This document shows positions 25,700 through 55,399 of a stretch of 57,685 nt of DNA, piece after piece. The notes beneath the pieces are model-generated. The model saw only the letters and a program-made list of their open reading frames with translations, searched no databases and was not told the DNA's origin. The DNA lies in assembly GCA_045046875.1 (NCBI GenBank), contig JASFYY010000113.1, positions 1-57,685 of the forward strand. Direction: 5' to 3'. Numbering within the stretch: position 1 is the first letter of the stretch; every line of letters begins with the position of its first letter. The translations under genes were made by a program, and so were the position numbers. This DNA comes from Verrucomicrobiota bacterium (lineage in GTDB: Bacteria > Verrucomicrobiota > Verrucomicrobiia > Verrucomicrobiales > DEV007).

Positions 25700-26473
25700 T
25701 TAGTCAGCGTAAACTTTAGCTAATTTTTGCCCATGGTCATCAAGCATATTCTTCAGCGTCATGAAGTCCCCTCCAAAAGCAAGCAGTTGCGCCCCTTTCT
25801 CCTTCAATCTCTCCACGGCTTCAATACTGCCCGCCGGACAACCCCAGGCTTTGCCCTCACGAGCTGCTGCTGCCGCCACCTTGTCATAGACCTCTTCCAA
25901 CTGCAACGATCCGGCTCCAGGTTGACGCAAACGCAAACCCAGATCCCCTGGCCCAATAAATAGTCCATCCACCCCGGGCACCGCCGCGATCTCATCGACA
26001 TTATTCACCGCCTCGATCGTCTCAATTTGAACCACCAGAAAAGTTTCACGGTTAGCTTCTTCGGTAAAATTCTCGCCACCTTGCAGAATAAAGTCGCTAT
26101 CCAAACCTGCTCCATCCAAACCGCGATCCCCCAAAGGAGGGAACTTCACCGCATCCACCAAAGCCTGCGCTTTCTCCACCGTCGACACATGGGGAATCAT
26201 CAAACCCGTCGCTCCATCTTCCAAATAACGATAGAGGCTGGTTTTTTCCACTGTCGCCGGACGTAACATGCAATCGATGTCAGCCAGATGAAAATGCGTC
26301 AACAGAGCAGCGATTTCCCTATCACTGAAAGTGCGGTGCTCCATGTCCAACCAAATCAAATCAAATCCAGCATTCGCCGCATGGTGAATATAAGAAGGAA
26401 TAAAATGCCCCAAAACGCACATCCGTGCGGGTTGGCCTTCTTTTATTCTTGTCAGGGTTTTACTTTTTCTCAT
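25700..26473 (-). CDS. HpcH/HpaI family class II aldolase
   Basis: WLDMEH, KFPPLGDRG, VQIET, LFIGPGDL. Confidence 0.9.
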   Translation of the reverse strand: MRKSKTLTRIKEGQPARMCVLGHFIPSYIHHAANAGFDLIWLDMEHRTFSDREIAALLTHFHLADIDCMLRPATVEKTSLYRYLEDGATGLMIPHVSTVEKAQALVDAVKFPPLGDRGLDGAGLDSDFILQGGENFTEEANRETFLVVQIETIEAVNNVDEIAAVPGVDGLFIGPGDLGLRLRQPGAGSLQLEEVYDKVAAAAAREGKAWGCPAGSIEAVERLKEKGAQLLAFGGDFMTLKNMLDDHGQKLAKVYAD

Positions 26474-26581
26474 AGAATATCTCGATTGAGCTGAGTTCAC
26501 CTTACGCCGTTTTTTTCATTTCGACAGCATAATTGCAGAGCCTCCCGCTTTTCATTTCGAAAAGCCTCCTGCACCGCCCGG

Positions 26582-26651
26582 TAATAATTCGATTCACTAA
26601 TAATTCGATAAATTCATACGGTCTTGACAGAAGCAATCAGATTTATAACTT
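26582..26651 (+). promoter_or_regulatory. Direct repeat TAATAATTCGAT x2 plus a sigma70-like promoter
   Basis: 12-mers at 26582-26593 and 26598-26609; TTGACA at 26624-26629; TAACTT at 26646-26651. Confidence 0.5.
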
Positions 26652-26721
26652 TCCTAGATTTCCAATGACTGTCGAATCCAAATCCAGCTCTACAGGCGCG
26701 ACAGAAAGAATTGCTTCTCCA

Positions 26722-27904
26722 ATGACAACACCGAACAAAAAAGAAGCCAACCGTGGACAACCCGCAGCACTGCGCCGGATAAACATCGACTCCATTGTGC
26801 GAAAAATCCAAACCGACGCTCCCATCAGTCGCGCCGATCTCGCACGCTCTACCAAGCTGAGCTATCCCACGGTGATGAAAATCGGCAACATGCTGCTGGA
26901 TAGCCGGATTGCAGAGTGGCTGCCTGATGAAATCCAGGAATCCAGCGGACGGGGACGCCCGGCTTCATTCATGCAAATGGCCCGCACCCAATCACATGTG
27001 ATTGCCCTCTCCTTCCGCCCCACCCACCATTCTGGCCGCCACTGCCGGCCTCGACGGGCGGACACTACAGGAAATCACTGCACCCATTCCGCAAAGTTAC
27101 CCGGAGATCCTACAGACCAGCCAGCAATTGATCAAAAAATTACAACAAGGCAATGCCTCGCGCACTCTAGGAATCGGGCTCTCTGTGCCAGGCCAGATCG
27201 ACACGGGCTGCAACGATTTGATCCTGCAATCCCCCAACATACCCTGCATGGAAGGGCAGCGCATCAGCACGGATTTGAGTAAGCTCACCCAACTACCAAC
27301 TGTAGCGGTCAGTACCATGCGAGCTCTTTACAACTCGGAAATCATACGTGGACAAGCGACCTCTTACGATAACTTCGTCGTGCTGAGCTATTTTTCCGGT
27401 ATGGCTCTCTCCATGTCATGCAACGGAAACTATGTCACAGGTGCCAATGGCATGGCGGGTGAACTAGGCCACTTCATCGTCGACCCGAAAGGCGAGCTCT
27501 GTGGCTGCGGTAACCGCGGTTGCATCGAAACCCTCGCCACCGATCTCGCGCTTTCACAAGCCATATCGCGTAATCTCGGGCGCAAAGTCGAGGTAGAAGA
27601 AATGCTCGAACTGATACGCAAATCCCCTGAACGTTTTGCGCCCGAAATCGACCACATGCTCAGCTACCTCGCTATCGCCATCGGCGCCACGATTAATATT
27701 TTTAATCCTGAAGCCATATTCCTCTACGGCCGCCTGCTTGAGGTCAACGACACTTTCATCGTTAAACTAAGGAAAAAAATCCCTGATAAATGCCTCAAAA
27801 GCCTGGCTTCCAAATGTTTAGTGAAACGCTCTAAGTCCACTATGATCCAAGGCGCCGCTCTCGCCATTGCCAAGCAACTCACCGGTGAACTCAGTACCAA
27901 CTAG
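26722..27904 (+). pseudogene. ROK family transcriptional regulator split by a one-base insertion (or sequencing error)
   Basis: ORF 26533-27282 has the HTH up to SFRPT and ORF 27002-27904 has the ROK domain (GELGH, CGCGNRGC). Both are colinear with the paralog at 27996; the extra base lies in the C-rich tract 27019-27028. Confidence 0.85.
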
Positions 27905-27995
27905 CAGCATGTGCCTATTCGCATATAAGCTACCACCTATGTCCACCTGATCCGCCCTTGACAAGCACACAAGATTTTACAACGTTTTCACTGCA

Positions 27996-29201
27996 ATGAG
28001 TAATAATCCGGAAACCACCCACAATAAAAGTAACAAAGAGGTTAACCCCGGGCAACCAGGATCTCTACGCCGCATCAATATTGAGCGCATTGTGCGCAAG
28101 ATCCAGACCGACTCCCCCATCACCCGCTCGGATTTGGTACGCTCCACTGGATTGAGCTACCCCACCGTGATGAAAATTGCCGATTTCCTGCTGGAAAAAA
28201 ACATGGTGGAATGGGATCTGGATGAAAACAACGAAACCGGCGGTCGCGGACGTCCCGCTTCCTACATGCAAATGGCAGGCAACTCGGCCCATGTGATCGC
28301 CATCTCTTTCCGTCCTACTTACATCCATGGCGCGATATCCTCCCTTGATGGCAAGATCATCAAAGAAATGGAGTGCCCCATCCCCTCAACTTACCCGGAA
28401 ATACTCGAAGCCAGTGTCCGATTAATCAAGGACTTGCAACAAGGCAGTAAGTCACGAACACTGGGAGTAGGACTGGCCAGTCCCGGCCTGCTGGAAATAG
28501 GCAAGCACTCGAAACTCACCATCTCAGCAAATATTCCCGCCCTCACCGAACACTTCATCGCGGAAGATCTTGCTGAACTCATCAACCTACCGACGGTCAT
28601 CGTCGGCACAATGCGCTCCTTGTACAATTCCGAAATCATACGCGGCCATGCCGTCGATCACAAAAACTTTGCCATTTTGAACTACTACGCAGGAATGGGG
28701 CTCGCCGTTTCAAGTAACGGCAACTACATTGATGGTGCCCACGGAATGGCTGGCGAGTTGGGACACATCGTCGTCGAAGTCGGCGGAGAACTTTGCGGTT
28801 GTGGCAACCGGGGTTGCTTGGAAACCCGTGCCACCGACCACGCCCTGGCTAAATCCATCTCCAAGAAAATGGAGCGCACCATCAGCGTCGATGAAATGAG
28901 CGAATTGATTCGTAAATCTCCCAGCCGTTTCGAAGACGAAATCGACCAGATGCTCAACTTCCTGGCGATCTCCATCGGCATGACGATCAATATCTTCAAC
29001 CCTGAAACGGTACTGCTCTACGGAAGGCTGCTCGACATCCACCCTTCTTTTTTCGACAAATTACAGAAAAAAGTTCCCGCCACCTGCCTCAGCAGCCTGG
29101 CCGCCACCTGCACTTTGAAAAAATCCAATTCACGCACCATCGAAGGAGCCGCCCTGGCCATCGTTGAAGAACTGACCAACAAGTTAAGCTCAAAAAACTA
29201 A
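27996..29201 (+). CDS. ROK family transcriptional regulator (NagC/XylR-like)
   Basis: ITRSDL...LSYPTV HTH, GRGRP, GMAGELGH, CGCGNRGCLE. Confidence 0.93.
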   Translation: MSNNPETTHNKSNKEVNPGQPGSLRRINIERIVRKIQTDSPITRSDLVRSTGLSYPTVMKIADFLLEKNMVEWDLDENNETGGRGRPASYMQMAGNSAHVIAISFRPTYIHGAISSLDGKIIKEMECPIPSTYPEILEASVRLIKDLQQGSKSRTLGVGLASPGLLEIGKHSKLTISANIPALTEHFIAEDLAELINLPTVIVGTMRSLYNSEIIRGHAVDHKNFAILNYYAGMGLAVSSNGNYIDGAHGMAGELGHIVVEVGGELCGCGNRGCLETRATDHALAKSISKKMERTISVDEMSELIRKSPSRFEDEIDQMLNFLAISIGMTINIFNPETVLLYGRLLDIHPSFFDKLQKKVPATCLSSLAATCTLKKSNSRTIEGAALAIVEELTNKLSSKN

Positions 29202-44450: not shown

Positions 44451-45620
44451 CTATAACTTGCCGCAAAACCTCTCGATTCGCTCCAAGCCCTTTTCCAACT
44501 GCTCCATGCTGGTCGCGTAGCTCAAGCGGAAATAGTCATCCGCACCAAAAGCAATGCCTGGCACCGCTGCCACCTGCTCGTCCTCGAGCAATTTGGCGCA
44601 GAACTCCGAGGACTTGAGGCCGGTCTCTGCAATGTTGGGGAAAAGATAAAAGGCCCCCTCGGATTTATAACAGCTCAGCCCCTTGCACTCACTCAAACGA
44701 GCGTGAGCGAACTCACGCCGCTTGGCAAACTCGGTCATCCAAGCAGGTAAATGGGACATCGGTTGGGTCATCGCCGCCACCCCGCCGATTTGAGCAAAAG
44801 AAGTCGGATTACTGGTGCTGTGGCTTTGAAAGGCTGCGATCTTTTTAGCAATCGGCAAGGGTGCCGCCATGAAACCCAGGCGCCAACCCGTCATGCTCCA
44901 GGCTTTGGCAAAACCATGCACAATAATCGTATGCGCTTGATGCTGCTCGGAGCAAGTGGCCACACTTTTATGCACCGCTCCGTCGTAGAGCAAGTGCTCG
45001 TAAATTTCGTCGCTCAAGATCAATACCCCCCGCTGCACACAAACATCCCCCAAGGCCCTGATCTCATCCGGGCTGTAAACCACCCCGGTGGGATTGCTCG
45101 GTGAGTTGAGAATAAAAATCCGCGTATTCTCATTGATCGCTGCACGTAACTGATCCGGAGTGACCTTGAAATGAGTCTCGTCTCCCGTCTCCAAAATCAC
45201 CGGTGTGGCCCCCGCCATGCGCACCATTTCAGGATAACTCAACCAGTATGGGGCCGGCACGATCACTTCGTCCCCTTGCTCACACAGAGCCATCATCACA
45301 TTAAAACAAGAATGTTTTCCTCCGCAGGAAACCACGATCTGTCCGGCTTCATATTTCAAACCATTCTCACGCTCGAACTTATCCGCAATCGCCTGCCGCA
45401 ACTCAGGGATACCTGCCGCCGGAGTGTATTTGGTGAAGCCCTCATCCAGTGCTTTTTTGGCTGCATCCTTAACAAAATCCGGGGTGTCAAAATCCGGCTG
45501 ACCGGTTCCAAAACCCACCACATCGATCCCGGCTGCTTTCATTTCCCTGGCTTTGCCATCGATCGCCAATGTCACTGAGGGAGTCAATGAAGCCGCCCGC
45601 TCCGAAAATTTGTATTCCAT
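44451..45620 (-). CDS. PLP-dependent aminotransferase class I (aspartate aminotransferase type)
   Basis: GQPDF, TKYT, NSPSNPTG, SDEIY, AKAWSMTGWRLG, PGIAFG, RLSYA. Confidence 0.95.
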   Translation of the reverse strand: MEYKFSERAASLTPSVTLAIDGKAREMKAAGIDVVGFGTGQPDFDTPDFVKDAAKKALDEGFTKYTPAAGIPELRQAIADKFERENGLKYEAGQIVVSCGGKHSCFNVMMALCEQGDEVIVPAPYWLSYPEMVRMAGATPVILETGDETHFKVTPDQLRAAINENTRIFILNSPSNPTGVVYSPDEIRALGDVCVQRGVLILSDEIYEHLLYDGAVHKSVATCSEQHQAHTIIVHGFAKAWSMTGWRLGFMAAPLPIAKKIAAFQSHSTSNPTSFAQIGGVAAMTQPMSHLPAWMTEFAKRREFAHARLSECKGLSCYKSEGAFYLFPNIAETGLKSSEFCAKLLEDEQVAAVPGIAFGADDYFRLSYATSMEQLEKGLERIERFCGKL

Positions 45621-45650: not shown

Positions 45651-46361
45651 CTACCAGGCACCAGCTCTTTTCCAGCCCAAATGAGGCTGGAAGGCCTCCG
45701 CCGCCACAACCCCCGCCTGATTCCCCCGCGCACTCGTCTGATCTCGCATGATGTCCGCCAAAGGAGAAAAATCAGCGTTGTCACCGCGCGCCAGCTGGCT
45801 TTTATGACAGTCCAGCATGGACAATTTTAGATCAAGGTGATCACTGACATCAAGAAAAAATCCCGGTTCAAAACGAGTCATATTGATCGTATCCATCCAC
45901 CACAGAGTTGGTGGAGATGCCATCGCCGCCGAATCGGTCACATGCCCGGCCGAAGCACAAAACCACGACGAGGCCTCGGCCAAAGCGGAAGCCTGCTGAT
46001 GATCGGGGTGGTAATCTTTGCACGAGTGCGCCAATACCAAAGTGGGTTTGAATTTCCTGAAAATCTCGATCAATACCTTGCGTGACTGGTAATCATCAAA
46101 CAATTCGCCATCAGCAAAACCTGCCTCATAAAACACCGCCCCCAACAGCTCTGCAGCAGCTTGCATCTCAGCGCTTCGCACTTCACCCAGGTCATCCCGC
46201 GGCGGATCACTCTGCCCCTTGTCCCCCCGGCACATCACACAAACCGCAATCGCCGCTCCATCCGCCTTGGCTCGCGCCAGAGTCCCGGCACACAATAGTT
46301 CAGCATCATCCGGATGCGCCACCACGGCAATCACTCGATCATTTTCAAAGTTAAACTTCAT
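45651..46361 (-). CDS. PIG-L/LmbE family N-deacetylase
   Basis: AHPDD, GDKG, R..E, DYHPDH, CHKSQ, AEAF. Confidence 0.92.
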   Translation of the reverse strand: MKFNFENDRVIAVVAHPDDAELLCAGTLARAKADGAAIAVCVMCRGDKGQSDPPRDDLGEVRSAEMQAAAELLGAVFYEAGFADGELFDDYQSRKVLIEIFRKFKPTLVLAHSCKDYHPDHQQASALAEASSWFCASAGHVTDSAAMASPPTLWWMDTINMTRFEPGFFLDVSDHLDLKLSMLDCHKSQLARGDNADFSPLADIMRDQTSARGNQAGVVAAEAFQPHLGWKRAGAW

Positions 46362-46373
46362 CTTTATAAAAAT

Positions 46374-47234
46374 TTATCTTAAACCAATGTCCGGCAATGC
46401 CGCAACATATTCTGCCACCGTCAGCTTGGCGTCCGGGTGATCTTGCATCAGAGAAGCCGGACAGGCCGCACTCACTGAATCGTGCAGAACCCGTCTAACC
46501 ACGGCACTCTGCCACAGTCGATTGCAATAAAAACGCAACTTCTTCGCTCCCAGAATCTCCTTCATACCCACCGTGATCGCGCGTCGGGGAATCACCGACA
46601 AACCACCTCCAACCGTCACTGAATTGATCGTGATCGTTTCACGACTCAAGTTCAAATTACGTGTCGGGCGCGCGGCAAATTCCTCCACCGAACAGACTTC
46701 GCCGGGTTCCGGAGGTTCATTAAAAGCCATGTGACCATTGATACCGATGCCCCCAAAACAAGCATCCAGTCCCCCACGCAATTCAATCAAATCCTGAATT
46801 CCCGCTAAATCCGCCGGATCTGGAAATACCCGGTTTTTTGCCAGAGGAGCCAAGTCAGGGTCGATCAGATCATAAAACTTCCGGTTCATGTAACCACGAA
46901 AGCTCAGTGGATGATCCGCTGGGATCCACTGCTCATCCTCGCTGAGGTATTCGTCCATATTGATCAAAACCACCTGCCGCCAATCCCGTTTTTCACGATT
47001 GATGATCTCAGCCAAAACCGAAAATTGATCTACCGGACCTACCGGAATAATCATCGTCGCCGAACGCCCCTGCGCCAAAGCCTCGTCCACCACCGCCATC
47101 ATCTCCGCCGCCATGTTCGCCGCAATCTCATCCATCCCCTTCACCACCGCCACCGACACCGAAGTCCCCTTCCCCAAATCAGCCTCAGGCACCTTCAAAT
47201 ACTCCGGATATAGTGAGCTCTCCATCTCAATCAT
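46374..47234 (-). CDS. Glucosamine-6-phosphate deaminase/isomerase (NagB)-like protein with an atypical phosphate loop
   Basis: NMDEY, HPLSF, GGIGINGHMAFNEP, AITVGMKEIL, PASL; IPVGPVDQ stands where NagB has LPTGGTP. Confidence 0.88.
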   Translation of the reverse strand: MIEMESSLYPEYLKVPEADLGKGTSVSVAVVKGMDEIAANMAAEMMAVVDEALAQGRSATMIIPVGPVDQFSVLAEIINREKRDWRQVVLINMDEYLSEDEQWIPADHPLSFRGYMNRKFYDLIDPDLAPLAKNRVFPDPADLAGIQDLIELRGGLDACFGGIGINGHMAFNEPPEPGEVCSVEEFAARPTRNLNLSRETITINSVTVGGGLSVIPRRAITVGMKEILGAKKLRFYCNRLWQSAVVRRVLHDSVSAACPASLMQDHPDAKLTVAEYVAALPDIGLR

Positions 47235-47304
47235 GAGTGGATTTTTCACACGCCACCCAACAATTGTCAACCCTTTTATTCCATTATTAGAATAAACCTG
47301 CACC

Positions 47305-47752: not shown

Positions 47753-48988
47753 ATGCATCCACGTCCGAGAGAAACCAAGTTAATTGCGAAAAAAAATCGC
47801 ATCTTGAACGAAATTTTTCGCTCGGGCCGTTGCTCGCGTTTTGATCTCGCCAGACGTCTCAATATCAATGCGACCATGGTAGGCAACTACGTCGACGGCT
47901 TTCTCGCCGAAGGGATCCTAGTCGAAGATAAACCGGTCGCCTCGGGCCCTGGACGTGTGCCCGTTCCGCTCAGACTCAATCCGCACCACGGTTGCCTGTT
48001 GGGCGTCGAGTTCGAAGCTTTGCGAGCGCGTGCGGTGTTATGTGATTTTTCCGGCAAAGTGATCGAAGAAAGACAAATCCCCTTCCACGCCGGCATCCAA
48101 CGTGAAGAGGTCATCACGCAGATCATTTCGCTCTGCAAAGAGCTCATCGCCGCCGCTCAACACCCCCTGATATCCCTCGGAGTGGCCGCCCCCGGTCAAG
48201 TGGATTGCGAAAAGGGGCGCATCCTGCACTACGAACTTTTACCCGACTTCAGTGAAGTTCCCCTGCTGGAACGTTTCCAGGCAGAGATCGACATCCCCAC
48301 CTTCGTCGAAGACAACATCCGCACGGTTGCTTTTGGTGAATTGCTAAGAGGCAATGGCCGGGGCAGTCAGAACTTCCTCTGTCTGGCCGCTCGTTCGGGA
48401 GTCGGACTGGGCATCGTCATCGATGGAAAAATCCACAGTGGCAGCTACGCCATGGCCGGCGAAGCAGGGCACATGGTCTTCCCCACTGCGGACGGGGTGA
48501 AAAACATGACCGAACTGGTTTCCGCCACGGGCTTTGTCAACCACATCCGGTCTTTGCTGAAAACGAAACAAAGCGATCCCACCCACAAAGAGCTGTTCAA
48601 CAAGGGCAAGCATTTGTCCCTACGGGACATCGTCGAAGCTGCAGAAAATGGTGATGATTTTTTTCAACAACAGCTCAGCCAACTCGGCTCCAACCTCGGC
48701 TTACTCACCGCCAACCTCGCCAACCTCTTCGCTCCCGAAAAAATCGTCTTGGCTGGTGAAGTCCCCAACTGCTCCGCTCTAGTGCGTCAATCGATGGAAC
48801 TAACTTTCAGCAAATACACGCTGCCCCAAATCCTAAAAACGGTTCAGCTGGAAGACGGCGCCTTGGGGGAAATGGCTGGTGCCATGGGCGCGGCCTGGAT
48901 GGGATTTGGCCGCCACCTGCCGGAAGACGAAATAACTGTCAGTCGCAAAATAGATAATACCAAGATTTATTCCCAACCAAACCCTTAG
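47753..48988 (+). CDS. ROK family transcriptional regulator
   Basis: SRFDLARRL HTH, GPGR, APGQVD, EDNIR, GVGLG, AGEAGH. Confidence 0.92.
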   Translation: MHPRPRETKLIAKKNRILNEIFRSGRCSRFDLARRLNINATMVGNYVDGFLAEGILVEDKPVASGPGRVPVPLRLNPHHGCLLGVEFEALRARAVLCDFSGKVIEERQIPFHAGIQREEVITQIISLCKELIAAAQHPLISLGVAAPGQVDCEKGRILHYELLPDFSEVPLLERFQAEIDIPTFVEDNIRTVAFGELLRGNGRGSQNFLCLAARSGVGLGIVIDGKIHSGSYAMAGEAGHMVFPTADGVKNMTELVSATGFVNHIRSLLKTKQSDPTHKELFNKGKHLSLRDIVEAAENGDDFFQQQLSQLGSNLGLLTANLANLFAPEKIVLAGEVPNCSALVRQSMELTFSKYTLPQILKTVQLEDGALGEMAGAMGAAWMGFGRHLPEDEITVSRKIDNTKIYSQPNP

Positions 48989-49000
48989 ACCTTTATAACC

Positions 49001-49780
49001 ATGAACTCAAGAGACATCACTGATATCAAAAGCGCCGACATGCTGCGAGCGGATGACTGGAAATTCGAATACCAGCAGAAGTGCAATCCGGAGAATTCCA
49101 ATCTCGATCTGATCACCTACGGCAGCTACCGCATCGCCCCCGGAGCAAACAGCGACGAACTTTATCACCGCAACGAAGAAGCGCTGCTGTTCTGCATGAG
49201 CGGAAAACAAACGATCGAAGTCGAAGGAGAAAAATTCACCCTATCCCATTACGACACGCTCTACATCCCTTTGCAGACCAGCTACCGGATCACAGAGAAT
49301 TCTGACGAGGAAGGCCACATCATCATTTGCCGCGCACCTGCTGAAAATCAGCATCAAGTGTTCTACTCCGAGTGGGAAAAAATCCGCGTCGATGAGGAAC
49401 GCATCCGCCACTTGGATAAAAAAGAAGTCTATATGATGTTCGACGTTAGCGAGAACGCGGACAAACTGGTCGCCGGCTACACCGTTTACGAACCTTTCAC
49501 CCGCGCCTGGCCGCCTCACAACCACACCGACCAGGAGGAAGTTTATATTTTCACCCAAGGCCAGGGTTCCATCGAAGTTTACCCGGACGAAGCTAATAAA
49601 ACCTTTGTTCACAGCATGAACACCATGGATGCAGCGACCATCCCAGTGCTCAACTACCACCCCGTTTACAGTCAGGGCGAAGAACTGCATTTCATCTGGT
49701 GTCTCGCCGGTGAGCGCTACTGGGTCGGCGACAAACACCAATCTTTCATGGATGCCTCGGTTGATGAACTGACCACCTGA
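49001..49780 (+). CDS. KduI/IolB-family cupin isomerase (candidate sulfoquinovose isomerase)
   Basis: Bicupin pattern with YDTLYIP, WPPHNH..QEEVY and YHP metal-binding motifs. Confidence 0.8.
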   Translation: MNSRDITDIKSADMLRADDWKFEYQQKCNPENSNLDLITYGSYRIAPGANSDELYHRNEEALLFCMSGKQTIEVEGEKFTLSHYDTLYIPLQTSYRITENSDEEGHIIICRAPAENQHQVFYSEWEKIRVDEERIRHLDKKEVYMMFDVSENADKLVAGYTVYEPFTRAWPPHNHTDQEEVYIFTQGQGSIEVYPDEANKTFVHSMNTMDAATIPVLNYHPVYSQGEELHFIWCLAGERYWVGDKHQSFMDASVDELTT

Positions 49781-49821: not shown

Positions 49822-51267
49822 ATGGACACTACCACAGACTCAATACGCCCCATTTATCTTAATGGCGAATGGAATGACCAGGGGCCAGCTCTGCAAGTGA
49901 GCAATCCCTCGACAGGCGAAGTTTTTGCCAGCGTCAGCACGATTGACCGCGCGGGTACCAAACAAGCCATCGCTGACGCAGAAGCCTCCTGGAAAGCCTG
50001 GCGCGATCTGACTGGCAAAGAACGCGGTGCCTACTTGCACGCCATCGCTGATGGTATCGAAAAACGCAGCGATGAAATCGCCCGCACTATTTCCCAGGAA
50101 AACGGTAAACCGCTGGCTCAGGGAAAAGGCGAAGTCGGCATGACCATTGATCACTTCCGCTGGTTCGCCGAAGAAGCCCGACGCGCTTACGGGCGGGTCA
50201 TCCCCCATCAAATGGAAGGCAAACGCCATCTCGCCATCCGTCAATCGGTCGGCGTGGTGGGAGCGATCGCACCGTGGAATTTTCCGCTGGTGCTGGCGGT
50301 GCGAAAAGTCGCACCCGCTCTGGCCGCCGGTTGTCCAGTGTTACTCAAACCTGCGAGTGCCACCCCGCTGAGCTCGGTGCTTTTAGCCGAAGCGGTGCAC
50401 GAAGCCGGACTGCCCAAAGGAGTGTTCCAATTACTGGTCGGCAATGCTCGTGAGATCGGTGCGGAGATGATGGAAAACCCAGCCTGCCGCAAAATCACCT
50501 TCACCGGTTCAACCGAAGTCGGCCGCGAACTCATTCGCCAAAGCGCCGACCAGGTCAAAAAACTGTCGATGGAACTCGGCGGCCACGCCCCCCTGATTAT
50601 CTTCGATGATGCCAATCTCGACAACGCAGTGGAAGGTGCCCTGATCACTAAATTCCGCAACGGCGGGCAATCCTGCATCGCCTCTAACCGCATTTATGTG
50701 CAACGCGGCATCTATGAAAAATTTCTCGATCTATTTGTCGAAAAAGCCAAAGCCATGAAGATCGGCGACGGCTTGCAAGACGGCGTCGACATCGGCCCAC
50801 TGATCGATAGCGCAGCGGTCGATACCGCCATCGCCCACATCGAAGCTGCCACCGCATCCGGCGCACGCATCCTCTGCGGCGGCAAACGTGCCGACGGACT
50901 CGGGCCGAGTTTTCTCCAAGCCACCGTCCTGGCCGATGTGCCTGAAGACACCCTGTGCATGAACGAAGAAACCTTCGCCCCGGTCGCCCCGGTGTCAGTG
51001 TTTGACGAAGAAGACGAAGTCATCCAACGCGCCAACGACACCGACTACGGTCTGGCCGCTTATGTTTTCACCGAAAACCTTAACCGCGCCTGGCGTGTCG
51101 CCGAAGCCCTCGAAGCGGGCACCGTCGGTGTCAACGACGCCGTGCCCTCCACCAGTCAATGCCCCTTCGGTGGCATGAAACAAAGCGGCCTCGGCCGCGA
51201 ACTCGGCAGCGAAGGCCTCGACGGCTTTTTAGAAACCAAACATATCTCGTTTGGGGGAATCGGTTGA
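49822..51267 (+). CDS. NAD(P)-dependent aldehyde dehydrogenase, GabD-like (candidate sulfolactaldehyde dehydrogenase SlaB/SftD)
   Basis: PWNFP, FTGSTEVG, MELGG, GQSC, EETF, PFGG.KQSG.GRE; located beside the SqvA-like transaldolase. Confidence 0.9.
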   Translation: MDTTTDSIRPIYLNGEWNDQGPALQVSNPSTGEVFASVSTIDRAGTKQAIADAEASWKAWRDLTGKERGAYLHAIADGIEKRSDEIARTISQENGKPLAQGKGEVGMTIDHFRWFAEEARRAYGRVIPHQMEGKRHLAIRQSVGVVGAIAPWNFPLVLAVRKVAPALAAGCPVLLKPASATPLSSVLLAEAVHEAGLPKGVFQLLVGNAREIGAEMMENPACRKITFTGSTEVGRELIRQSADQVKKLSMELGGHAPLIIFDDANLDNAVEGALITKFRNGGQSCIASNRIYVQRGIYEKFLDLFVEKAKAMKIGDGLQDGVDIGPLIDSAAVDTAIAHIEAATASGARILCGGKRADGLGPSFLQATVLADVPEDTLCMNEETFAPVAPVSVFDEEDEVIQRANDTDYGLAAYVFTENLNRAWRVAEALEAGTVGVNDAVPSTSQCPFGGMKQSGLGRELGSEGLDGFLETKHISFGGIG

Positions 51268-51688
51268 GAATACAGAAGTTAGGAGTTAGGAGTTAGAATG
51301 AGAGAACCTGCAAGAACATTCGAAGATCTTATTGTCTGGCAGAAGGCGCACTCATTTGTGCTTTCTGTCTATCGACTAACACGATCATTCCCTAAGTCAG
51401 AAACCTATGGTCTGACTTCGCAATTCCGGCGTGCCGCCGTTTCAATCCCTGCAAATATCGCCGAAGGTTTCCGCAAGCGAGGCAAAGCAGGTAAAGCCCG
51501 TTATTTCAACATCGCAGAAGGCTCCGCCGAAGAATGCCAATACTATCTAATCTTAACCAAAGACCTTGAATACGGTGACGTTTCCGAACTCTCACCATTA
51601 CATGAAGAAGTTCGCAAATTACTAAACGCCTACTCCCAAACTCTCCGAACCTAAAATTCTAACTCCTCAATTCTAACTTCTAACTACT
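51267..51688. mobile_element. Four-helix-bundle gene cassette bounded by inverted heptamer arrays
   Basis: AGAAGTT/AGGAGTT repeats upstream and AACTCCT/AACTTCT downstream give a ~26-bp stem (51274-51299 with 51656-51681). Confidence 0.6.
51298..51654 (+). CDS. Four helix bundle protein (23S rRNA IVS protein / Avd-like family)
   Basis: FEDLIVWQKA, FPKSETYGLTSQFRRAAVSIPANIAEG, IAEGS..E. Confidence 0.95.
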   Translation: MREPARTFEDLIVWQKAHSFVLSVYRLTRSFPKSETYGLTSQFRRAAVSIPANIAEGFRKRGKAGKARYFNIAEGSAEECQYYLILTKDLEYGDVSELSPLHEEVRKLLNAYSQTLRT

Positions 51689-51689
51689 T

Positions 51690-52352
51690 ATGAAATTATT
51701 CCTCGATAGCGCAATAACAGAAGAGATCGCCTATGCCCTTGAACACTGGGACATGGACGGACTGACCACTAACCCCCGCCATGTGATGGTATCGGGAAAA
51801 CCTTTCCGCACCGTCATCGCCGAGGTCGCCGAATTGGTAAAAGGCACCGACAAACCGGTGAGCGTGGAAGTGAACCCCCACTTCACCGAATGTAAAGAAA
51901 TCGTCGAACAAGGACGCGAACTCGCCGCTCTATCACCCAACTTTGTGATCAAAGTCGGAGCCTGCGAAGGTGGATTCACCGCCATCCGCGAGCTCTCCAA
52001 GGACGGCATCAAAACCAATGCCACCCTCATCATGTCCGTCGCCCAGGCCTGGCATGCCGCCCGTGCCGGAGCGTCATTCATCAGCCCCTTCCTCGGTTGG
52101 AAAGATCAGTTCGGCGATTCTCCCGACGCCCTGATCGGCGAAGTCCGCGCAATGCTGGACGAACACGATTACAAATCTGAAATCATCGCCGCTGCGGTTC
52201 GCAACGCCAGACAAATAGGCGATGTCGCCATCAGCGGAGCACATTGCATCACCGCCGGTCTTGCGGTTTACAAAGAAAGTTTTGGTAACCCCTACACCAC
52301 CATGGGCGAAGGCATCTTCCAAAGCGCCTGGGACCAAACCCCCGAATCCTAA
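51690..52352 (+). CDS. sqvA: Sulfofructose transaldolase (6-deoxy-6-sulfo-D-fructose transaldolase, SqvA/SftT-like)
   Basis: TalC/FSA-type sequence (D6, K88) with TTNPRH (R30), SPFLGWK (W137 instead of the usual R) and AAAVR (R171). This matches the sulfonate pocket I recall for Bacillus SqvA. Confidence 0.85.
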   Translation: MKLFLDSAITEEIAYALEHWDMDGLTTNPRHVMVSGKPFRTVIAEVAELVKGTDKPVSVEVNPHFTECKEIVEQGRELAALSPNFVIKVGACEGGFTAIRELSKDGIKTNATLIMSVAQAWHAARAGASFISPFLGWKDQFGDSPDALIGEVRAMLDEHDYKSEIIAAAVRNARQIGDVAISGAHCITAGLAVYKESFGNPYTTMGEGIFQSAWDQTPES

Positions 52353-52372: not shown

Positions 52373-53617
52373 ATGCCAAACACAAATTCCAACGACAACC
52401 TCACCACCGATCGCCCCACTTTCGTCACCCATCTCGAATGTGGACTCGAAGGCGATCATTACGAGAGCGATGTCATTCACGAGCTCTCCAAAGCCGGCCG
52501 CCCCTTGTTAGTAAAATACGATCTCGATGCGATCAAAAACGCAGTCAGCAAAGAAGATCTTGCTGCCCGTCCGGCTGATCTGTGGCGTTACCGCGAATTC
52601 CTGCCAGTGCGCAAAACCGAAAACATCGTCAGCCTCGGAGAAATCCAGACTCCACTGGTGCACATGTCAAAATTACAAACTGGCAGCGGAGATCTAATCG
52701 TCAAAGACGAAGGCCGCCTACCCACCGGATCCTTCAAAGCCCGCGGACTCTGTCTCGCGGTCTGCATGGCCAAGGAACTCGGCATCAACAAAATCGCCAT
52801 GCCAACCAATGGCAACGCTGGCGCCGCACTCGCCGCTTACGCCACCCGCGCAGGAATCAGCACCTACGTCTTCTGTCCCGACGACACCCCGGAAATCAAC
52901 GTGCGGGAAATCGCCGCCCAGGGAGCGAAGGTTTGGCGGGTCAACGGCCTGATCAATGACTGTGGAAAAATCGTCGGTCAAGGCAAAGAGCCAATGGGCT
53001 GGTTTGATCTCTCAACACTAAAAGAACCCTACCGCATCGAAGGTAAAAAAACCATGGGACTCGAACTCGCCGACCAACTTGGCTGGAAAGTTCCCGACGT
53101 GATTTTTTACCCCACCGGTGGTGGAACCGGCTTGATCGGTATGTGGAAGGCCTTCAACGAACTGAAAGAAATCGGCTGGCTGCAAGGCAAACTGCCACGC
53201 ATGGTGGCGGTGCAAGCCAGTGGCTGCGCACCGATCGTGAAAGCTTGGCAGGAAGGCAAACGCCACGCCGAACTGTGGCAAGACGCCCACACTGTAGCCG
53301 CCGGAATTCGCGTGCCGGTAGCGGTCGGCGACTTCCTGATTCTGGATGCCGTGCGTGAAAGTGACGGATTCGCCATCGCCATCGACGATGACGCCATCAT
53401 CGCCGCCGGTGAAGAAGTGTCGCAAAAAGAAGGTTTCCTGATGTGCCCCGAAGGCGCCGCCACCTACGCCGCTTACAAACAAGCCCTCGCCGAAGGCACC
53501 GTCAGCCCGGATGAAAGTGCCGTATTATACAACTGCGCCACCGGATTAAAATACGAACTGCCCAGAGCCGACGCCACCCTCGACTGCACGCAGGAAATTG
53601 ATTACAGCAAGCTGTAG
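52373..53617 (+). CDS. Threonine synthase-like fold-type II PLP enzyme (candidate cysteate desulfonating enzyme)
   Basis: LWRY, SLGE..TPL, PTGSFKARG (PLP lysine), TNGNAG, EGKKTMG, PTGGGTG, CPEGAA. Confidence 0.88.
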   Translation: MPNTNSNDNLTTDRPTFVTHLECGLEGDHYESDVIHELSKAGRPLLVKYDLDAIKNAVSKEDLAARPADLWRYREFLPVRKTENIVSLGEIQTPLVHMSKLQTGSGDLIVKDEGRLPTGSFKARGLCLAVCMAKELGINKIAMPTNGNAGAALAAYATRAGISTYVFCPDDTPEINVREIAAQGAKVWRVNGLINDCGKIVGQGKEPMGWFDLSTLKEPYRIEGKKTMGLELADQLGWKVPDVIFYPTGGGTGLIGMWKAFNELKEIGWLQGKLPRMVAVQASGCAPIVKAWQEGKRHAELWQDAHTVAAGIRVPVAVGDFLILDAVRESDGFAIAIDDDAIIAAGEEVSQKEGFLMCPEGAATYAAYKQALAEGTVSPDESAVLYNCATGLKYELPRADATLDCTQEIDYSKL

Positions 53618-53899
53618 AGGCTGTAGCGATTTAGGCTGTAGGCTGTAGGATTCTAATTTGAAAGTTAATTTGGAAATATAGTCGCTCGACTTTGAATATT
53701 TTTCATAAAAACATCGAAAGCGCAAACCTACGACTCACGCCAACACCCTGTCAAACTGCTCACAAAAAATCCAAGAAACCAAAAAAGTCCTCGGTGCCCT
53801 CGTCCGCTCCATGCGTTAGCCCTCCTCTCACTTCAGCACTACCAAAGTGCGCCAAACACACAACCCTACAGTCTACAGCCCAAACACCTACAGCCCTCT
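53616..53899 (+). pseudogene. Decayed four-helix-bundle cassette between inverted GGCTGTA/CTACAGY arrays
   Basis: 53616-53649 pairs with 53865-53899; the internal frame ends SNCSQKIQETKKVLGALVRSMR* (stop 53817-53819), resembling a four-helix-bundle C-terminus. Confidence 0.6.
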
Positions 53900-53903
53900 T
53901 CCC

Positions 53904-54866
53904 ATGATCCTAATCACAGAAAACATCACCGGCACAGCCATGGACCAACTCCGAAAGGATATGGACGTGACTTTTGAACCCGAACTCTGGGCCCACCCCG
54001 AGAAACTCAAAGAGGCGCTCAAAGGAGTCAAAGCGCTCATCGTGCGCAACCAAACCCAGGTGACGGCAGACATCATCGCCGCAGCGGACGGACTGCAAAT
54101 CATCGCTCGTGCCGGAGCCGGGCTGGACAACATCGATATCAAAGCCGCTAGCGACGCCGGCATCGTGGTCACTTCCACTCCCCAGGCCAATTCCATCTCG
54201 GTGGCCGAGCTTGCCGTTGGGCTGATGATCAGCCTGGCGCGACAAATCCCCTCCGCTGACTGGGACACTCGCGCCGGAGGCTGGAACCGCCAGATTTTCA
54301 CCGGTGGAGAGCTATCCGGAAAAACCCTCGGAGTGGTTGGCTTTGGCCGCATCGGCGTGCTCACCGCAACCCGGGCCAAAGTTTTCGGGATGAACATTGT
54401 CGGTCACGATGACTACGTCGATCCTGAGTCCGACGCAGTGAAAGAACTCGACGCCAACATGCTCAGCTTGGATAATTTATTATTCCAGGCCGACTTCATC
54501 ACCTGCCACGTGCCGCTCACCGATGGCACCCGCGAAATGTTCAACGACGACTTATTTAAAAAAATGAAATCAAGCGCGTTTTTCATCAACACCTCGCGTG
54601 GCGAAGTGGTCGACGAAAACGCCCTCGCACGAGCTTTGCAAAATGACCAGATCGGCGGAGCCGCGCTCGACGTGCGGCAAGTCGAACCTCCCGACGCCAG
54701 CAGCCCGCTCAACGGCCTTGGCAATGTCATCCTCACTCCTCACATCGCCGCTTTCACCCGCGAGGCCCAAACCCGGGTCGTCGATGCCGTTTGCCGCGAC
54801 GTCAAAGCCATCCTCAACGGCGAATCCGCCACCGATTTCTTTAATTTCCCCCAACCCCAACTGTAG
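53904..54866 (+). CDS. D-isomer-specific 2-hydroxyacid dehydrogenase, (S)-sulfolactate dehydrogenase SlcC-like
   Basis: ALIVRNQTQVT, RAGAGLDNID, GFGRIG, NTSRG, LDV, TPHIA; no ACT domain, so not a full-length SerA. Confidence 0.85.
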   Translation: MILITENITGTAMDQLRKDMDVTFEPELWAHPEKLKEALKGVKALIVRNQTQVTADIIAAADGLQIIARAGAGLDNIDIKAASDAGIVVTSTPQANSISVAELAVGLMISLARQIPSADWDTRAGGWNRQIFTGGELSGKTLGVVGFGRIGVLTATRAKVFGMNIVGHDDYVDPESDAVKELDANMLSLDNLLFQADFITCHVPLTDGTREMFNDDLFKKMKSSAFFINTSRGEVVDENALARALQNDQIGGAALDVRQVEPPDASSPLNGLGNVILTPHIAAFTREAQTRVVDAVCRDVKAILNGESATDFFNFPQPQL

Positions 54867-54916
54867 GGCGAGCGCCCCGCTTGCCCACCCTCTTCTTTCA
54901 CCCCGCTTGCCCCTAC
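54863..54916. repeat. GTAG...CTAC REP-like pair
   Basis: GTAGGGCGAGCGCCCCGCTTGCCC followed by CCCCGCTTGCCCCTAC. Confidence 0.55.
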
Positions 54917-54937
54917 AAACTCAACTCAATAAAAATC

Positions 54938-55399
54938 ATGTCCATAGAATCCAAACTCGAACAACTCGGCCTCAGCTTGCCGGAAGCCCCCAAACCCGTC
55001 GCCGCCTACATCCCTGCCGTCACCAGCGGCAAACAAGTGATCGTCAGCGGCCAGCTACCGATGCAAAACGGTGAACTCATCAGCACTGGAAAGATCCCCA
55101 GCCAAGTATCGATCGAAGACGCCCAGGCCGCCGCCCGCCAATGTGTGCTCAATGCTCTGGCGGTGCTAAAAGCTGAACTTCAAGGCGACCTCAGCCGCCT
55201 GGTTCGTGTGCTGCGCATCGGTGCTTTTGTGCAAAGCGACGACGACTTTTACGGCCAGCCTCAGGTCGCCAATGGAGCCAGTGAATTTCTGTTGGAACTG
55301 CTCGGCGACGCCGGCCGCCACGCCCGTGCCGCCGTCGGAGTCAACGCCTTGCCACTCAACGCCTCGGTCGAGGTCGAATTCACCTTTGAGGTGGACTAA
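54938..55399 (+). CDS. Rid (YjgF/YER057c/UK114) family imine/enamine deaminase
   Basis: PKPVAAY, SGQLP, ANGASE, GRHARAAVG (catalytic Arg present), LPLNASVEVE. Confidence 0.92.
   Translation: MSIESKLEQLGLSLPEAPKPVAAYIPAVTSGKQVIVSGQLPMQNGELISTGKIPSQVSIEDAQAAARQCVLNALAVLKAELQGDLSRLVRVLRIGAFVQSDDDFYGQPQVANGASEFLLELLGDAGRHARAAVGVNALPLNASVEVEFTFEVD

Follow-up and report, generated by a model that had tools for sequence, protein, structure and literature searches.

We analyzed a 57,685-nucleotide stretch of DNA (the window; contig JASFYY010000113.1, assembly GCA_045046875.1) from a Verrucomicrobiota bacterium of the DEV007 lineage. Three open reading frames (ORFs) lie here 3' of a transaldolase gene and encode, in order, a fold-type II pyridoxal phosphate (PLP) enzyme resembling threonine synthase (ThrC), a D-2-hydroxyacid dehydrogenase of the SlcC type, and a Rid protein (Table 1). 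An initial annotation, made from the letters of the window, had described this arrangement, and we confirmed that the three ORFs are codirectional with one another and with the upstream ROK, KduI-type, aldehyde dehydrogenase, and transaldolase genes. We propose that the three genes probably form the desulfonating tail of a sulfoglycolytic transaldolase (sulfo-TAL) pathway, in which the PLP enzyme would convert L-cysteate to pyruvate, ammonium, and sulfite and thus serve as a nonorthologous replacement for the cysteate lyase CuyA that needs no racemase. This proposal rests on gene identities assigned by homology, on paralogy, active-site divergence, and co-occurrence, and on the absence of known lyases; every substrate assignment, the L specificity, and the role of Rid are predictions from these. 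It is likely that the operon carries out C-S or related anion elimination, whereas the exact substrate is less settled.

A ThrC paralog with a replaced substrate site

The PLP enzyme belongs to the PRK08197 (NF006050) family, which NCBIfam labels "threonine synthase"; ESM Atlas likewise returned only "putative threonine synthase" clusters. Against the threonine synthase model TIGR00260 it scored 159 bits, narrowly below the cutoff of 167, compared to 282 bits for the ThrC encoded in a housekeeping hom-thrC-ask operon on contig C9, and its identity to threonine synthases was 30 to 33% at best. The gene is thus not the sole thrC of its genome, and a higher-scoring ThrC was also present in all five of the other carriers tested. 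With the cysteate synthase model TIGR03844 the enzyme scored 81 bits, far below the cutoff of 325. The family comprises at least 8,000 database proteins at an E value of ≤1e-50, a count that may take in more distant relatives; cultured organisms named there include Thalassoroseus pseudoceratinae and Opitutia ISCC 51. A third ThrC-like paralog, below all cutoffs, is found on contig C133 (L003, 1417 to 2493), in an operon with genes labeled from their translations as short-chain dehydrogenase/reductase (SDR), AstE/AspA-like, and MlrC-like; M81/MlrC and AstE neighbors also recur next to alphaproteobacterial PRK08197 genes.

The predicted structure (predicted local distance difference test score [pLDDT], 93.6) has the threonine synthase fold. 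It matched short bacterial and plant-type threonine synthases (6CGQ, 1V7C, and 2C2B) with Z scores of 43 to 49 and root mean square deviations (rmsd) of 2.0 to 2.3, including a Z of 48.6 over 398 aligned residues for 2C2B (rmsd, 2.3) and of 43.5 for 6CGQ. The match to the Bacteroidota cysteate synthase CapA2 (9K3C) had a Z of 41.0 and an rmsd of 2.6 over 371 aligned residues, at 20% identity. When we aligned the active sites of 124 family members with those of four housekeeping ThrCs, the Schiff-base lysine with its motif (Lys122) and R221 were retained, and the surrounding residues were replaced across the family: A149 for Thr in 124/124, N176 for Lys in 119/124, K225 for Gln in 124/124, and G250 in 124/124, where a GGG loop stands for GNA. 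An inserted K217-E218 pair was present in 123 to 124 of the 124. The differences from ThrC are visible in short motifs as SFKARG for SFKDRG, TNGNAG for STGNTS, STLKEPYR for NSVNPYR, EGKKT for EGQKT, and PTGGGTG for PVGNAGN.

We take the phosphohomoserine-binding set of Thermus thermophilus ThrC to be Thr88, Lys116, Asn154, Ser155, Arg160, and Asn187. The equivalent positions here are A149, N176, S214, T215, R221, and G250, identical only at the arginine, although a second alignment puts the NS pair one residue later. The replaced residues would then be phosphate-binding positions, and K217, R221, and K225 would be suited to a different anion, for instance a sulfonate. By these comparisons, the enzyme is a paralog of a working threonine synthase with an altered substrate site, and the near invariance of that site suggests one activity across the PRK08197 family. 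The initial annotation had this paralog eliminating sulfite from cysteate; the paralogy, the replaced substrate site, and the sulfoglycolytic neighbors speak for that idea, in which cysteate as the substrate is a prediction.

Sulfoglycolytic neighbors and family distribution

The transaldolase scored 235 bits against BmSF-TAL (8BC3), compared to 137 against the next transaldolase, and contains the motifs TTNPRH, LGWKD (GW), and VRNAR (RN). We take the SF-TAL motif residues Arg30, Trp138, and Arg172 to have functional roles in SqvA. Judged by these matches, the transaldolase is an ortholog of SqvA. The dehydrogenase is a short paralog of the SerA encoded on contig C42 and was the best match in the genome to two SlcC proteins (238 bits, versus 181 for that SerA). 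These references are defined by their gene context, a suyAB...slcC-comC cluster in Rhodococcus and an hpsN...slcC-comC-tauE cluster in Paracoccus; the characterized Chromohalobacter SlcC was not among them. In a tree the dehydrogenase grouped with Rhodococcus SlcC at moderate support (93/92) and at 40 to 44% identity only. SlcC itself has been placed in or next to the SerA clade (PMC6303947). The initial annotation was also correct that an aminotransferase ends the divergent operon, after NagB-like and PIG-L genes. Among 44 other genomes, 5 had an ortholog of it (77 to 92% identity), each an SqvA carrier, as did none of 10 control Verrucomicrobiae without a close ThrC-like gene, so by distribution this aminotransferase is a cluster-specific extra paralog.

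Known routes of C-S cleavage were searched for in the whole assembly, which is 94.7% complete. The absence of suyAB, cuyA, comDE, and xsc, first noted for the window, held genome-wide; thrB, likewise not recognized in the window, was not part of the genome search. The best match to the CuyA/DcyD model TIGR01275 reached 30 bits against a cutoff of 289 and lay on another contig, and the ThrC-like gene was not reported by that model. For Xsc the best match (277 bits; cutoff, 676) was rejected as an acetolactate synthase. ComDE were not found: a ComE-like match on contig C48 proved to be a phosphonopyruvate decarboxylase of phosphonate biosynthesis, forming a trio there with phosphoenolpyruvate mutase and aminoethylphosphonate transaminase genes (L212, 2562 to 5784). 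The genome yielded no SuyB or ComC ortholog, the best SuyB match being a fused UxaA at 32 to 33%, and no PF01177 (Asp/Glu) racemase. It does contain TauE-family genes, a family also present in 13 of 14 control genomes, and, on contig C115 (L090, 5775 to 7595), a SorA-like molybdenum enzyme with a small cytochrome c, a pair like the sulfite dehydrogenase SorAB. The molybdenum enzyme falls below the SorA cutoff and is 64% identical to one adjoining the lyase gene in Opitutaceae, where the cytochrome is homologous too.

We then compared related loci, defined as the best 80 of 480 GTDB relatives, of which 50 were used in genome searches. An SlcC-type gene was the most constant neighbor (31/80); an L047 dehydrogenase that groups apart was left out of this count. 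An independent sulfonate marker was present at 33 loci (SqvA at 15, SftI-like at 16, and TauE at 9; among them YeiH at 7 and SorA-like at 4), and SuyB, ComC, and HpsN were found at none of the 80. SqvA was encoded by 21 of the 50 searched carriers, including 12 of 15 Verrucomicrobiota, and by 0 of 300 sampled Verrucomicrobiota that served as a control; related genomes do not count as independent in this comparison, and the habitats of the two sets are not alike. Only 1 of the 21 SqvA carriers had a CuyA/DcyD family member. No SuyB match above 35% appeared in 56 carrier genomes, in a search run without a positive control. Four of the SqvA-carrying genomes have split UxaA-like pairs, which were rejected as SuyAB (29 to 34% to SuyB); in Opitutales such an A/B pair (L118, 5114 to 6501; L119, 4281 to 5695), at ∼30% to SuyB, is followed by a flavin adenine dinucleotide (FAD)-dependent oxidoreductase-like ORF.

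In the lyase tree, from which three short ThrC outgroups fell out at the length filter, sulfonate linkage was spread over four distinct regions. At Actinomycetota loci, the lyase and an SlcC-type gene accompany PfkB, LacD-type aldolase, and SftI-like genes and a gene scoring 351 bits against 8QC3, which we take to be a GH188 (glycoside hydrolase family 188) sulfoquinovosidase. One alphaproteobacterium (L164) carries the same set, resembling sulfo-EMP (the sulfoglycolytic route of the Embden-Meyerhof-Parnas type) with a GH188-like gene. The actinobacterial dehydrogenases grouped with Paracoccus SlcC at 100/100, a lineage distinct from that of the Planctomycetota-Verrucomicrobiota-Chlamydiota (PVC) dehydrogenases; two different SlcC lineages thus appear to have been recruited next to the lyase gene. 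On a plasmid of "Candidatus Chlorohelix allophototropha" (L211, L132), the lyase gene lies with genes for a succinate-semialdehyde dehydrogenase (SSADH)-type enzyme, a sulfite/nitrite reductase, siroheme synthesis, a PfkA-type kinase, and a 2-hydroxyacid dehydrogenase that grouped, on a long branch, with neither SlcC reference; TauE is close by, and an SftI-like gene scored 343 bits (cutoff, 700). This sulfo-EMP2-like cluster in a phototroph suggests the use of sulfoquinovose as a sulfur source. Plasmid homologs in Azospirillum and Aliarcobacter have ssu-type sulfur-scavenging clusters around them or a ComC-family gene as a neighbor, contexts that argue for sulfite release rather than consumption.

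The Rid protein had been counted as part of the module, which proved overstated. It scored 48 bits against TIGR00004 (RidA; cutoff, 106) and is of the PF14588 type outside RidA, presumably Rid1-like. The arginine at the catalytic position is retained (RHAR130AAVGV in the translation); we assume that this residue, the Arg105 equivalent, is the criterion for Rid1 to Rid3 imine deaminases. The genome encodes three paralogs of this protein. Of 41 other genomes, 7 had an ortholog, and each of the 7 carries SqvA (7 of 21 SqvA carriers in total); in Opitutales the gene follows sqvA and not the lyase gene. Rid therefore belongs to the cluster yet is dispensable and accessory.

Proposed pathway and alternatives

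In the pathway we propose, SqvA would cleave sulfofructose to (S)-sulfolactaldehyde, which the GabD-type dehydrogenase would oxidize to (S)-sulfolactate and the SlcC-type dehydrogenase would carry on to sulfopyruvate. The extra AspC-type enzyme, or a housekeeping transaminase in relatives, would convert sulfopyruvate to L-cysteate. The PRK08197 enzyme would bind L-cysteate as a PLP aldimine and release sulfite by beta-elimination; the 2-aminoacrylate set free would hydrolyze to pyruvate and ammonium, with help from Rid where present, and the sulfite would be oxidized or exported. A route via sulfopyruvate and cysteate is reportedly known from Roseovarius.

Upstream of SqvA, the KduI/IolB-type cupin is a candidate for a new sulfoquinovose isomerase; 9 of the 21 SqvA-carrying relatives have an SftI-like gene. 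Of 49 other genomes, 8 had NagB-like orthologs; each of the 8 carries SqvA, and an SftI match was absent from all of them. PIG-L adjoins the NagB-like gene and sqvA in the Planctomycetaceae regions L123, L124, and L127. By analogy with NagA and NagB, this pair could form sulfofructose from an N-acetylated 6-deoxy-6-sulfo glucosamine. An amino-dideoxy-sulfohexose occurs naturally in Halococcus; our literature search found no paper on a catabolic pathway for an N-acetylated 6-deoxy-6-sulfo amino sugar. The fullest version of our proposal is tentative, and we would not bet on it as a whole: PRK08197 would be a true L-cysteate sulfo-lyase that closes one-cell sulfo-TAL mineralization in marine Verrucomicrobiota and Planctomycetota, fed by sulfoquinovose and, via PIG-L and the NagB-like protein, by such an amino sugar.

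Several observations weigh against the proposed pathway. The grouping of the PVC dehydrogenases with SlcC has only the moderate support given above, both references being defined by gene context, and no SlcC-type ortholog was found at ≥52% identity in 5 of the 21 SqvA carriers, where gaps in metagenome-assembled genomes (MAGs) may play a part. A dedicated aminotransferase was present in just 5 of the 20 PVC SqvA carriers searched. The genome gave no SftI match (NF048012), no GH31, and a best GH188-like match of 30%, which leaves the entry substrate uncertain. CuyA/DcyD family members accompany the ThrC-like gene in 12 of the 50 carriers, and 3 of the 5 sulfonate-linked alphaproteobacteria have them as well; the ThrC-like enzyme is therefore not a strict CuyA replacement. 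The family occurred in 35 of 251 genomes of an even sample of Alphaproteobacteria, and we read 34 loci (reference tblastn across ∼5 kb in both directions and a Pfam search with 122 of the 128 closest ORFs). Just 5 of these had a sulfonate neighbor, and 2 more an NMT1/SsuA-type binding protein; a GH31 gene beside the homolog L166 was not counted, being YicI-like and not YihQ. Loci in Sphingomonas and Fuerstiella lacked any sulfonate gene, and none of eight distant Verrucomicrobiae family members had SqvA. Finally, PMC11193023 states, with data not shown, that the Bilophila wadsworthia protein E5Y294, annotated as a threonine synthase, did not act as a cysteate sulfo-lyase. This protein may or may not belong to PRK08197.

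These points bear on the rival readings. The least improbable of them, itself unlikely, is that PRK08197 enzymes are beta/gamma-lyases of broad specificity or of another kind, acting for example on S-substituted cysteines or homocysteate, with a secondary link to sulfoglycolysis. It would accommodate the 29 of 34 alphaproteobacterial loci without a clear sulfonate neighbor, the recurring cysteine ATP-binding cassette (ABC) and M81/AstE/M20 peptidase neighbors, and the negative E5Y294 assay if that protein is a family member, but the gene has been placed repeatedly and independently beside SlcC-type and sulfite-handling genes, and its near-invariant active site suggests a single family activity. 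Next, and also unlikely, comes a different immediate substrate: D-cysteate, or sulfopyruvate directly via the pyridoxamine form, with no need for a dedicated transaminase. The prevalence of the SlcC-type gene, and not the aminotransferase, among the neighbors fits this reading, as does the scarcity of the cluster aminotransferase, and CuyA is a fold-type II enzyme able to prefer D-cysteate (PMC11193023). However, the missing Asp/Glu racemase counts against D-cysteate, and both variants must contend with the retained Schiff-base lysine and threonine synthase fold and with the amidohydrolase and peptidase neighbors in other lineages, which point to an amino acid substrate.

We think it quite improbable that the operon handles an O-sulfate ester, passing from N-acetylglucosamine-6-sulfate through fructose-6-sulfate to serine-O-sulfate, with sulfate eliminated in place of sulfite. 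PIG-L and NagB-like genes do travel with sqvA, a sulfatase gene lies 3' of sqvA in Planctomycetaceae, and neither a sulfoquinovosidase nor SftI was found in the genome, but the SftI-like isomerases, GH188-like gene, TauE, SorA-like, and sulfite reductase genes of relatives fit sulfite. Less credible still is a cysteate synthase making L-cysteate from phosphoserine and sulfite, with SerA-like and AspC-like enzymes supplying the phosphoserine. The initial annotation had left this biosynthetic direction open, and the descent of archaeal cysteate synthase from threonine synthase, together with the fold shared with CapA2, would allow it; yet the TIGR03844 score falls far short, the positions we take to bind phosphate are replaced, and the dehydrogenase groups with the SlcC type and not with SerA. 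Moreover, in relatives the gene stands together with genes for sulfite exporters, sulfite dehydrogenase, sulfite reductase, or sulfur scavenging, contexts that are catabolic or sulfur acquiring. Faintest of all is the chance of a redundant true threonine synthase, as the NF006050 label and the nearest solved folds would have it: the separate thr operon, the low identity, and the family-wide replacement of substrate-site residues all speak against it.

L-Cysteate desulfonation by the PRK08197 enzyme has partial parallels among known systems. Like CuyA, of the DcyD/1-aminocyclopropane-1-carboxylate (ACC) deaminase family, it would be a fold-type II PLP enzyme taking cysteate to sulfite, pyruvate, and ammonium via 2-aminoacrylate (PMC11193023). 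Both have a Rid neighbor, a RidA gene adjoining cuyAB in Bilophila (PMC11193023), but our enzyme is of another family, has no CuyB racemase, is predicted to be L specific, and is located in sulfoglycolysis operons. With the cysteate synthases of methanogens and Bacteroidota it shares a threonine synthase-derived scaffold for L-cysteate and aminoacrylate, for which the evolution of cysteate synthase from threonine synthase is a precedent; model score, identity, and catabolic context set it apart. The upstream genes resemble the sulfo-TAL pathway of Bacillus and relatives (SqvD/SftI, SqvA, and SlaB) in the SqvA ortholog, the GabD-type dehydrogenase, and, in Opitutales relatives, the SftI-like gene. 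The known versions finish with the excretion of sulfolactate or dihydroxypropanesulfonate (DHPS) (PMC9594981, PMC12890257), whereas this one would have a desulfonating tail, a KduI-type gene with NagB and PIG-L in the place of SqvD, and a Verrucomicrobiota host. Tandem mineralization of sulfosugars with SuyAB is known (PMC12421959), and our proposal shares with the SlcC/ComC-SuyAB route of Chromohalobacter and Paracoccus wurundjeri an SlcC-type first step and complete mineralization in one cell; ComC and SuyAB are absent here, with an aminotransferase and a PLP lyase proposed instead.

New, then, would be the enzyme family for this role, the predicted L specificity without a racemase, and the coupling to sulfo-TAL in PVC bacteria. 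Our literature search, whose coverage excluded most subscription journals, found no paper giving a ThrC-like or PRK08197 protein a sulfo-lyase function; the accessible text of a MocR regulon paper (PMC5320631) held nothing specific, and that of two 2026 reviews (PMC13436972, PMC12890257) does not mention Verrucomicrobia. CuyA was reassigned as D specific in 2024, which its authors find puzzling since L-cysteate should predominate (PMC11193023). A racemase-free L-cysteate lyase would fill this gap. If the proposal holds, a single bacterium could degrade the algal sulfur sugar sulfoquinovose completely; marine PVC bacteria and some Actinomycetota, Alphaproteobacteria, and Chloroflexota would complete sulfosugar breakdown alone, with a lyase gene missed by surveys for cuyA, suyAB, and xsc.

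Operon layout

Table 1. Features of the locus, with positions in the window
Feature	Position	Strand	Basis
PRK08197/NF006050 ThrC-like fold-type II PLP enzyme, 414 amino acids (aa)	52373..53617	+	NF006050, 654 bits (cutoff, 303)
SlcC-type D-2-hydroxyacid dehydrogenase, candidate (S)-sulfolactate dehydrogenase	53904..54866	+	PF02826/PF00389
Rid protein (YjgF/Rid), candidate accessory imine/enamine deaminase	54938..55399	+	PF14588, 81 bits
SqvA-type sulfofructose transaldolase	51690..52352	+	235 bits to BmSF-TAL 8BC3
GabD/SSADH-type aldehyde dehydrogenase, candidate sulfolactaldehyde dehydrogenase (SlaB role, from context)	49822..51267	+	TIGR01780, 568 bits (below cutoff, 646)
KduI/IolB-family cupin, candidate sulfoquinovose isomerase replacing SqvD/SftI (predicted role)	49001..49780	+	PF04962
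ROK (NagC-like) regulator	47753..48988	+	PF00480 and HTH_24
NagB-like deaminase/isomerase, altered phosphate loop (IPVGPV)	46374..47303	-	TIGR00502, 90 bits (below cutoff)
PIG-L-family de-N-acetylase	45651..46361	-	PF02585
Extra class I (AspC-type) aminotransferase, candidate sulfopyruvate/L-cysteate transaminase	44451..45620	-	Second copy on contig C2, 51% identity
Four-helix-bundle (23S rRNA intervening-sequence protein [IVP]) gene, inserted in operon, outside pathway	51298..51654	+	TIGR02436; not at this position in related locus L006
3' remnant of second four-helix-bundle gene, between ThrC-like and SlcC-like genes	53736..53816	+	85% over 27 aa to intact gene at same position in L007

The ThrC-like ORF begins 20 bp past the transaldolase stop codon. 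Based on ortholog lengths, the most likely starts of the dehydrogenase and Rid genes are the ATG codons at 53904 (320 aa; the longest ORF runs from a GTG at 53847) and 54938 (153 aa). The nearest relatives are Verrucomicrobiota MAGs at 88 to 97% identity. Scans for promoters and terminators gave results at chance level. The ROK gene is present at 13 of the 80 related loci, and a KduI/IolB-type cupin at 5, including L009, whose genome has no SftI or NagB-like match. PIG-L and NagB-like genes were also noted to travel with sqvA in L125. A second paralog of the aldehyde dehydrogenase is encoded on contig C54.

The gap of 286 bp that follows the ThrC-like gene contains the four-helix-bundle remnant; L007 has an intact copy of that gene, and L006 has none. 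Both four-helix-bundle genes (regions 51270 to 51690 and 53618 to 53903) have short tandem repeats on either side, in inverted orientation, and both are absent from the 97%-identical L006, which suggests that they are mobile cassettes. Elsewhere in the window (25700 to 29201), HpcH/HpaI aldolase and SDR genes diverge from two ROK genes, forming a second small sugar-catabolic locus.

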